Source: a phage. From it: a stretch of 541 nucleotides of DNA. This document shows positions 2-541 of the stretch, piece by piece. The notes below the pieces were generated by a model that was not told the DNA's origin, searched no databases, and saw nothing but the letters and a program-made list of their open reading frames with translations. The DNA is taken from sequence record EF517040.1. The stretch is one strand, 5' to 3'. Position numbers and translations under genes: made by a program. Positions within the stretch are counted from its first letter, which is position 1, and every line of letters starts with the position of its first letter.

Positions 2-292
2 ACTGTGGAGGCAGGACGAGATGAGATGGCTGTAGGCTCTCACGCTAAGGGTTACAACCACAACTCTATCGGCGTCTGCCTTGTTGGTGGTATCGACGAT
101 AAAGGTAAGTTCGACGCTAACTTTACGCCAGCCCAAATGCAATCCCTTCGCTCACTGCTTGTCACACTGCTGGCTAAGTACGAAGGCGCTGTGCTTCGCG
201 CCCATCATGAGGTAGCGCCGAAGGCTTGCCCTTCGTTCGACCTTAAGCGTTGGTGGGAGAAGAACGAACTGGTCACTTCTGACCGTGGATAA
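2..292 (+). CDS. 3.5: T7 lysozyme (gp3.5), N-acetylmuramoyl-L-alanine amidase and T7 RNA polymerase inhibitor; 5'-partial, C-terminal ~96 residues, stop codon included
   Basis: Frame-2 ORF open from the window start to TAA 290-292. The translation TVEAGRDEMAVGSHAKGYNHNSIGVCLVGGIDDKGKFDANFTPAQMQSLRSLLVTLLAKYEGAVLRAHHEVAPKACPSFDLKRWWEKNELVTSDRG matches the C-terminal part of T7 lysozyme as I recall it, including the AHHEVAPKACPSF segment that carries zinc-ligand and catalytic residues of the amidase_2/PGRP fold. The M at position 5 in the ORF track is an internal GTG (Val) of the full protein, not a real start. Confidence 0.95.
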   Translation, partial: TVEAGRDEMAVGSHAKGYNHNSIGVCLVGGIDDKGKFDANFTPAQMQSLRSLLVTLLAKYEGAVLRAHHEVAPKACPSFDLKRWWEKNELVTSDRG

Positions 293-293
293 T

Positions 294-316
294 TAATTGA
301 ACTCACTAAAGGGAGA
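294..316 (+). promoter_or_regulatory. T7 RNA polymerase class II promoter (phi3.8), -17 to +6, predicted transcription start at G311
   Basis: TAATTGAACTCACTAAAGGGAGA aligns without gaps to the T7 consensus TAATACGACTCACTATAGGGAGA, differing at -13, -12, -11 and -2; the CTCACTA core and GGGAGA initiating sequence are conserved. Position immediately after gene 3.5 matches the known phi3.8 location in T7. Confidence 0.9.
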
Positions 317-350
317 CCACAACGGTTTCCCTTTGTTCGCATTGGAGGTC
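311..350 (+). promoter_or_regulatory. Structured 5' leader of the phi3.8 transcript; candidate hairpin, possibly corresponding to the T7 R3.8 RNase III processing site
   Basis: GGGAGA (311-316) can pair with UUUCCC (326-331) as a 6-bp stem with one G:U pair and a 9-nt loop; GACC (315-318) is alternatively complementary to GGUC (347-350). From memory, T7 has an RNase III site (R3.8) about 20-25 nt downstream of the phi3.8 start; exact structure not verified. Confidence 0.35.
344..348 (+). promoter_or_regulatory. Shine-Dalgarno sequence (GGAGG) for gene 3.8
   Basis: GGAGG at 344-348, 7 nt upstream of codon 356-358, which begins the in-frame HNH ORF at the position expected for the gene 3.8 start. 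Confidence 0.7.
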
Positions 351-355
351 AAATA

Positions 356-541
356 ATACGCAAGTCTTATAAACAATTCTATAAGGCTCCGAGGAGGCAT
401 ATCCAAGTGTGGGAGGCAGTCAATGGGCCTATACCAAAAAGTTATTATATAGACCACATTGACGGCAATTCACTCAACGACGCCTTAGACAATCTCCGTC
501 TGGTTCTCCCAAAAGAAAACTCATGGAACATGAAGACTCCA
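356..541 (+). CDS. 3.8: Gene 3.8 protein, HNH-family endonuclease-like (homing endonuclease-like); 3'-partial, and the codon at the expected start is ATA rather than ATG
   Basis: Frame-2 reading from 356 gives (I)RKSYKQFYKAPRRHIQVWEAVNGPIPKSYYIDHIDGNSLNDALDNLRLVLPKENSWNMKTP, open to the window end. It contains a classic HNH signature, DHIDGN-x2-N-x7-N-x3-LPKEN, at 449-520. Offsets from the lysozyme stop and the phi3.8 start agree with T7 gene order (3.5, phi3.8, 3.8). Absent from the ORF track, presumably because it has no stop within the window. Confidence 0.8.
   Translation, partial: MRKSYKQFYKAPRRHIQVWEAVNGPIPKSYYIDHIDGNSLNDALDNLRLVLPKENSWNMKTP

Follow-up and report, generated by a model that had tools for sequence, protein, structure and literature searches.

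Organization of the gene 3.5–gene 3.8 junction

The stretch of DNA analysed here (541 nucleotides, hereafter the window) corresponds to positions 10870-11410 of the plus strand of phage T7 (NC_001604), with which it shares 98.7% identity. It comprises the 3' part of gene 3.5, the phi3.8 promoter, the leader of the phi3.8 transcript and the beginning of gene 3.8 (Table 1). Transcription from phi3.8 starts at window position 311, and the 5' end of the transcript was predicted to fold into an 11-bp stem-loop with an energy of -23.0 kcal/mol, the same in wild-type T7 and in the window, the predicted stability being unaltered by the G322A substitution in the loop. An A at position 322 is also found naturally in phages YpP-Y and 04922B, giving the leader GGGAGACCACAACGGTTTCCC. 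A scan of the window for sigma-70 promoters and terminators yielded none that exceeded the expectation from shuffled sequences.

A base-by-base comparison with T7 revealed that all seven differences in the window are G>A or C>T changes, interleaved and on both strands. Six of them are coding, and the five of these that are non-synonymous all lie in gene 3.8. The most consequential is the G>A change at position 358: the ATA at 356, which an earlier, sequence-only reading of this DNA had treated as a possible start of the gene, is indeed the annotated ATG of T7 gene 3.8 with its last base changed. Codon 1 is ATG in all T7 records and in all orthologues, and no carrier of the ATA allele was found by exact searches of IMG/VR and of metagenome and genome collections, nor by BLAST among 50,697 phage records. 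A published T7 heat-adaptation study showed no relation to this allele.

In T7 treated with nitrosoguanidine or hydroxylamine, GC>AT changes predominate (PMC6042481). Since the pure GC>AT spectrum of the window matches this pattern, we infer, from the spectrum alone, that the window derives from a T7 line that had undergone mutagenesis or mutation accumulation; as such a line should, it combines G:C>A:T changes on both strands with their enrichment in dispensable sequence. We also looked for a start codon that could replace the lost ATG from the 5' side, and rejected this candidate: the reading frame is open from position 293, yet up to position 356 it is devoid of ATG, GTG and TTG, and the only non-canonical codons that it offers are ATT at 296, ATT at 341 and ATA at 353.

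Table 1. Features and substitutions of the window (positions count from its first nucleotide)
Feature	Position	Strand	Details
Gene 3.5, 3' part (lysozyme/amidase)	2-292	+	TAA stop at 290-292; translation identical to T7, NC_001604 annotation
Substitution in gene 3.5	214		G>A, synonymous
Promoter phi3.8, T7 RNA polymerase, TAATTGAACTCACTAAAGGGAGA	294-316	+	annotated at T7 11180 = window 311
phi3.8 transcript 5' stem-loop, AAAGGGAGACC / ACAAC / GGTTTCCCTTT	308-334	+	fold prediction
Substitution in the leader	322		G322A, loop of the 5' hairpin
Gene 3.8 Shine-Dalgarno sequence, GGAGGT	344-349	+	-10.0 kcal/mol; GGAGG at 344-348, 7 nt before 356
ATA, annotated gene 3.8 start codon	356-358	+	inactivated by G>A at 358; T7 11225
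Substitution in gene 3.8	358		G>A, ATG>ATA, start lost
Gene 3.8 codons 1-62 (121 codons in T7), HNH_3 + AP2-like homing-endonuclease-type protein	356-541	+	
GAGGAGG, Shine-Dalgarno-like	391-397	+	last base of Pro12 (CCG) and tandem rare Arg13-Arg14 AGG-AGG; pairing with the 3' end of 16S rRNA, -11.8 kcal/mol
GTG, Val18 of gp3.8, proposed cryptic internal start	407-409	+	in frame; predicted hairpin-loop position in local folds
Out-of-frame GGGAGG (411-416), 6-nt spacer, ATG (423-425)	411-452	+	9-codon ORF MGLYQKVII, TAG at 450-452
Substitution in gene 3.8	420		A22V
Substitution in gene 3.8	440		G29S
HNH beta-beta-alpha-metal core (D33, H34 ... N46 ... N55, N58; D33-N58)	452-529	+	
Substitution in gene 3.8	470		P39S
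Substitution in gene 3.8	504		A50V

A strong Shine-Dalgarno-like sequence precedes an in-frame GTG

Once the ATG has been changed to ATA, the first canonical in-frame start of gene 3.8 is the GTG at 407. The sequence-only reading had pointed to this codon, noting that it follows a strong Shine-Dalgarno (SD)-like sequence and that initiation there would yield a protein about 17 residues shorter, and on these points it was accurate. The GAGGAGG, the 9-nt spacer (398-406) and the GTG in frame are read directly from the sequence, and the shortening is exactly 17 residues, as 407-356 is 51 nt and the GTG is codon 18 (...HIQVWEA...). The predicted SD pairing exceeds the median of the 57 annotated T7 starts (-10.0 kcal/mol) and ranks 4th among the 614 in-frame internal NTG codons of T7 genes.

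Such a site lends itself to the reading that it is a genuine alternative start, one that produces a shorter, active gp3.8, rescues expression upon loss of the ATG and possibly provides wild-type T7 with a second isoform. In favor of this reading, the SD pairing is on par with that of the proven internal start of gene 4B (-11.6 kcal/mol), and the same AGGAGG with a 9-nt spacer is found at the real start of gene 3.5. Local structure points in the same direction, the GTG being predicted to lie in a hairpin loop, with a probability of being unpaired of 0.41 in wild-type T7 and 0.67 in the window, while the SD-like sequence is about half open (long-context folds). An RBS-calculator-type score, home-made and crude, gave GTG407 +0.64 in the wild type and -2.06 in the window, compared with -0.01 for the native gene 3.8 ATG and a T7 median of -3.9, so that in this crude model the GTG equals or beats the native start. 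Furthermore, three independent automatic gene calls (in MG835568 and in contigs of P0013 and P0017) begin at the equivalent of GTG407 despite an intact ATG. These calls are likely to be N-terminally truncated mis-annotations caused by the SD-like sequence.

The gp3.8 orthologues annotated with 'MWEA...' starts are located at L007 324-638 (MG835568), L011 1501-1764 and L012 1501-1749, and in all of these records the conserved ATG and its 17 codons are intact. In P0013 and P0017, the C-termini are also frameshifted.

The open reading frame thus contains what a sequence-level definition of an internal start calls for, namely an SD-like sequence at a workable distance from an in-frame NTG. In E. 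coli reporters, AUA supports ~1-2% of the initiation observed with AUG, and GUG belongs to the 10-100% class (bioRxiv 10.1101/063800). Given the strength of the SD, its spacing, the accessibility of the site and the class of its start codon, cryptic initiation at GTG407 in the ATA mutant appears plausible, and we put the chance that initiation of any degree would be detectable there at close to even, if anything slightly below. A literature search found no ribosome profiling or N-terminomics of T7 infection, and the text of a T7 proteomics paper did not mention gp3.8.

Two further candidate explanations, which would tie the site to the window's own mutations, were rejected. That these mutations created the site is ruled out, as the motif and the GTG are unchanged in wild-type T7. 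That they specifically improved it was likewise discarded: the modelled opening of the local structure, by 2.7 kcal/mol, is within the error of the crude model, and is most simply taken as a coincidence.

The site occurs at chance level in T7 and is not conserved in orthologues

The motif is locally uncommon, yet at chance level in a scan of the T7 genome. The window contains one AGGAGG-N(4-10)-[A/G/T]TG, where dinucleotide shuffling predicts 0.06; at least one turned up in 12 of 200 shuffled sequences. Across T7 genes, 3 in-frame internal sites combine a workable spacing with an SD of -11.8 kcal/mol or stronger, where shuffling of synonymous codons leads one to expect 2.81 +/- 1.65 (P = 0.55), a count that speaks against a genuine start; synonymous shuffles of gene 3.8 alone yield such a site in 0.5% of cases. 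The GAGGAGG probably arose because gene 3.8 is heavy in the rare arginine codon AGG, which makes up 5 of its 13 Arg codons compared with 5% of those of T7 as a whole. The only two in-frame AGG-AGG tandems of T7 are both in gene 3.8, and a single synonymous CGG>AGG change at codon 14 would suffice to create the motif.

Comparison of orthologues showed a strong SD at codons 13-14 in T7 and in the near-identical YpP-Y only (AGG AGG in both, with pairing energies of -11.8 and -11.4 kcal/mol, respectively). It is missing from 04922B (AGG CAG, -3.9 kcal/mol), Tarrare, P0006, P0008, the Klebsiella phages (AGA GGA, -5.8 kcal/mol) and the Yersinia phages, those of the fPS group carrying CGT AAT or CGT AAG with a pairing of about 0 kcal/mol. 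Particularly telling against a genuine start are three orthologues that encode the identical peptide PRRHIQV and have lost the SD by synonymous changes, their codons 13-14 being AGG CGA, AGG CGG and CGA AGA with energies of -4.0, -6.9 and -1.0 kcal/mol, respectively. Nor is the start codon itself kept, codon 18 being GTT, GTC or ATC in several orthologues. Neither half of the site, then, displays the conservation expected of a selected internal start.

The other AGG-AGG of gene 3.8, at codons 110 and 111 (L001 1283-1298, T7 11552-11567, outside the window), served as a positive control, for it is the SD of gene 4A. This SD and its ATG were retained in all nine orthologous loci first compared, which span Teseptimavirus, Przondovirus and Helsettvirus, with pairing energies between -9.3 and -11.9 kcal/mol. 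The related loci retrieved from IMG/VR were mostly paralogues of 30-45% identity in other contexts, and as such unsuited to a nucleotide-level comparison of the site.

The upstream ATG of gene 3.8 was present in 16 of 16 orthologous loci examined. Codons 2-17 had a pN of 0.14-0.16, with synonymous sites saturated, similar to the remainder of the gene (0.18-0.22), a pattern that places these codons under purifying selection. Since the ATG is kept in every orthologue and pN at codons 2-17 is low, the 17 N-terminal residues are both translated and constrained, which speaks against a genuine alternative start at Val18. E. coli internal starts are in many cases strain-specific (bioRxiv 10.1101/520783), and a function specific to the T7 lineage would be compatible with the lack of conservation.

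Effect of a start at Val18 on gp3.8

T7 gp3.8 matches the Pfam family HNH_3 (PF13392) over residues 14-56 with 56 bits (E 3e-15; cut-off 24.8), and residues 18-62 of the window alone still score 49.2 bits. The C-terminal half of the protein (~65-121; L001 1148-1318, outside the window) is AP2-like, its profile matching the AP2 domain of WRI1 with an E of 6e-4, and PF00847 is present in the larger homologues. On the basis of these HNH_3 and AP2 matches, gp3.8 is best described as a minimal HNH-AP2 homing-endonuclease-type protein. Consistent with this, the family profile matches the homing endonuclease I-HmuI (PDB 1U3E; E = 1e-8), itself an HNH_3/AP2 protein, and the aligned part includes the segment N-terminal to Val18, with its invariant His; gp3.8, at 121 aa, is much smaller. 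A Foldseek search of the AlphaFold model of gp3.8 against the PDB gave no significant matches, only partial ones to AP2 domains in the C-terminal half.

The claim of the sequence-only reading that a protein initiated at the GTG retains the complete HNH motif held in part. The beta-beta-alpha-metal core does lie 3' of the GTG, which counts in favor of a genuine start, and D33, H34, N46, N55 and N58 are all intact in the window, though among the conserved core residues, which further include L49, the invariant A50 is replaced by Val. The HNH_3 domain, however, begins at residue 14, and the His15 shared by all 26 family members would be lost; Trp19, which is nearly invariant, follows the GTG. In the AlphaFold model (mean pLDDT 88), residues 14-23 form helix 1, and residues 1-10, which are modelled with low confidence, may be dispensable. 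A product starting at position 18, which cuts helix 1, would not be an intact structural or functional unit. From the positions of HNH_3, His15 and helix 1 it follows that a Val18 start would cost the protein its N-terminal tail, which is probably flexible, and also the initial turn of helix 1 with the invariant His; about half of this helix would be absent from the product.

Gene 3.8 is dispensable and carries missense changes in the window

Gene 3.8 is non-essential and serves as an insertion site (PMC6042481, PMC3737178), and most of it is deleted in many lab-evolved T7 genomes. The records MZ3752xx, OL964741 and PV223880 match the window only up to ~384-399, and in them gene 3.8 appears to have undergone recurrent deletions with similar left end-points; in MZ3752xx, the matched place carries a primase/helicase annotation.

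Of the sites in the window at which a GC>AT change would be non-synonymous, 5 of 57 are hit in gene 3.8 and none of 103 in gene 3.5, which is essential (P = 0.005 by Fisher's test; P = 0.02 for the excess of GC>AT changes at all sites), statistics that are based on 6 coding substitutions only and are thus supportive rather than decisive. The changes themselves hit conserved positions: A50 shows no variation among the 26 family members, all 14 close orthologues have Gly at position 29, and Ser was never observed at position 39. All four missense changes are 3' of Val18 and would therefore affect the full-length and the truncated product alike, which argues against selection keeping either of them active.

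These observations bear on the second suggestion of the sequence-only reading, that the GTG could rescue nuclease expression or yield a shorter isoform. It is not supported, whether as an evolved start or as a rescue of the nuclease: the SD and GTG are not conserved, codons 2-17 are constrained, the truncated product would lose the invariant His15, the gene is dispensable, and the window carries four further missense changes, A50V among them. It is unlikely that the truncated, multiply mutated product would be active as a nuclease.

Competing starts and effects on elongation

Residual gp3.8 in the ATA mutant could instead be mainly full-length, initiated at a near-cognate ATA (356 or 353) by way of the intact GGAGGT at 344-349, with the GTG contributing little. 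Initiation at AUA, as noted above, is weak and measurable in E. coli reporters, and the start region of the mutant is predicted to be more open (probability of being unpaired, 0.95). Ribosomes might moreover be captured elsewhere, for example at the out-of-frame ATG423, which, behind its GGGAGG, scores -3.7 in the crude model, better than GTG407, and is a potential ribosome decoy or competitor. Against this, GUG is in a more active class of start codons than AUA and has the stronger SD of the two sites, and long-context folds leave hardly any of ATG423 unpaired. We consider it quite unlikely that the ATA accounts for most of the product, and note that full-length initiation of this kind can coexist with the explanation that we favor below.

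A different possibility is that the AGG-AGG at codons 13-14, the SD-like sequence or both serve to slow or derail early elongation, by stalling, drop-off or +1 slippage, and in this way limit a potentially toxic nuclease. The confinement of the in-frame tandems of T7 to gene 3.8, in a phage in which AGG is a minor Arg codon, fits this idea, as do the other rare codons often found at this place in orthologues (AGA GGA, AGG CGA, AGG CGG, CGA AGA). The tRNA-Arg(CCU) that decodes AGG is scarce in the host, and tandem AGG codons are reported to lower expression and provoke frameshifts in E. coli (Spanjaard and van Duin 1988). The in-frame tandem and the scarce tRNA that such an attenuator would use are both in place; conservation is again wanting, the tandem being replaced by CGT AAT or CGT AAG in Yersinia phages and by AGG CAG in 04922B. 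In addition, the whole of gene 3.8 is rich in rare codons, so nothing singles out codons 13-14, and the other tandem already has an explanation as the SD of gene 4A. An elongation function is, in our judgment, decidedly unlikely.

As for the genuine alternative start, T7 does offer a precedent for in-frame internal initiation in the annotated pair 4A/4B; weighed against the synonymous loss of the SD, the selection on codons 2-17, the damaged product, the chance-level count of such sites and the dispensability of a gene mutated at an invariant residue, it is very unlikely. About as unlikely, and to our mind slightly more so, is that GTG407 is a start used specifically in the T7 lineage whose isoform is functionally active.

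Discussion

The explanation that we favor, and consider probable, is that GAGGAGG...GTG is fortuitous, at most a cryptic start in a dispensable, decaying gene, and neither a selected alternative start nor a rescue. According to this explanation, a single G:C>A:T change in a T7 lineage of the mutagenised type would have destroyed the ATG of gene 3.8, a gene presumably decaying under relaxed selection. The motif would be no dedicated element, consisting of ordinary codons for Pro12-Arg13-Arg14 (CCG AGG AGG) and Val18 (GTG). By sequence physics, the GAGGAGG site should nonetheless be able to bind 30S subunits, which would make GTG407 the likeliest site of residual in-frame initiation in the ATA mutant. 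Such a mutant would be expected to make a 104-residue product without residues 1-17, plus ~1-2% of full-length protein from the ATA.

The closest known mechanisms are in-frame internal starts. One is found in the same phage, only 0.5 kb downstream of the gene 3.8 site, where the 4B helicase is initiated at Met64 of the 4A primase-helicase. The two sites share an AGGAGG-type SD within coding sequence and an in-frame start, with nearly equal pairing energies (-11.6 kcal/mol for 4B and -11.8 kcal/mol for 3.8). Unlike the gene 3.8 site, the 4B start is an ATG with an annotated product, and its use removes a whole domain; the gene 3.8 site, by contrast, is a GTG that cuts inside the conserved HNH_3 domain, is not conserved itself and is predicted from sequence only. 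The internal starts of E. coli infB, clpB, mrcB, arcB and speA (bioRxiv 10.1101/520783) likewise combine an SD-like sequence with an NTG near the 5' end of the open reading frame. They were defined by initiating-ribosome peaks obtained with retapamulin, whereas the gene 3.8 site is known at the level of prediction, and many E. coli internal starts are of uncertain function (bioRxiv 10.1101/520783). Within gene 3.8 itself, the gene 4A SD is made of the identical Arg-Arg AGGAGG hexamer; this SD has a genuine ATG downstream of it to serve and is retained, while the copy at codons 13-14 is not.

Were the alternative start real, wild-type T7 would make a second, 104-residue isoform of gp3.8, which would also be the main product of the ATA mutant and would still bind or cut DNA. 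The AGG-AGG would then be a dual-use element, coding sequence and SD at once, like its twin serving gene 4A, and T7 would gain, in addition to 4A/4B, another pair of in-frame isoforms, this one encoded by an HNH gene that has been little studied. If the site is fortuitous, as we think probable, it carries a caution, namely that two rare Arg codons can generate a very strong SD with an in-frame GTG and mislead gene callers, and the gene 4A SD, the same hexamer a short distance away, illustrates how a selected embedded SD looks in an alignment.
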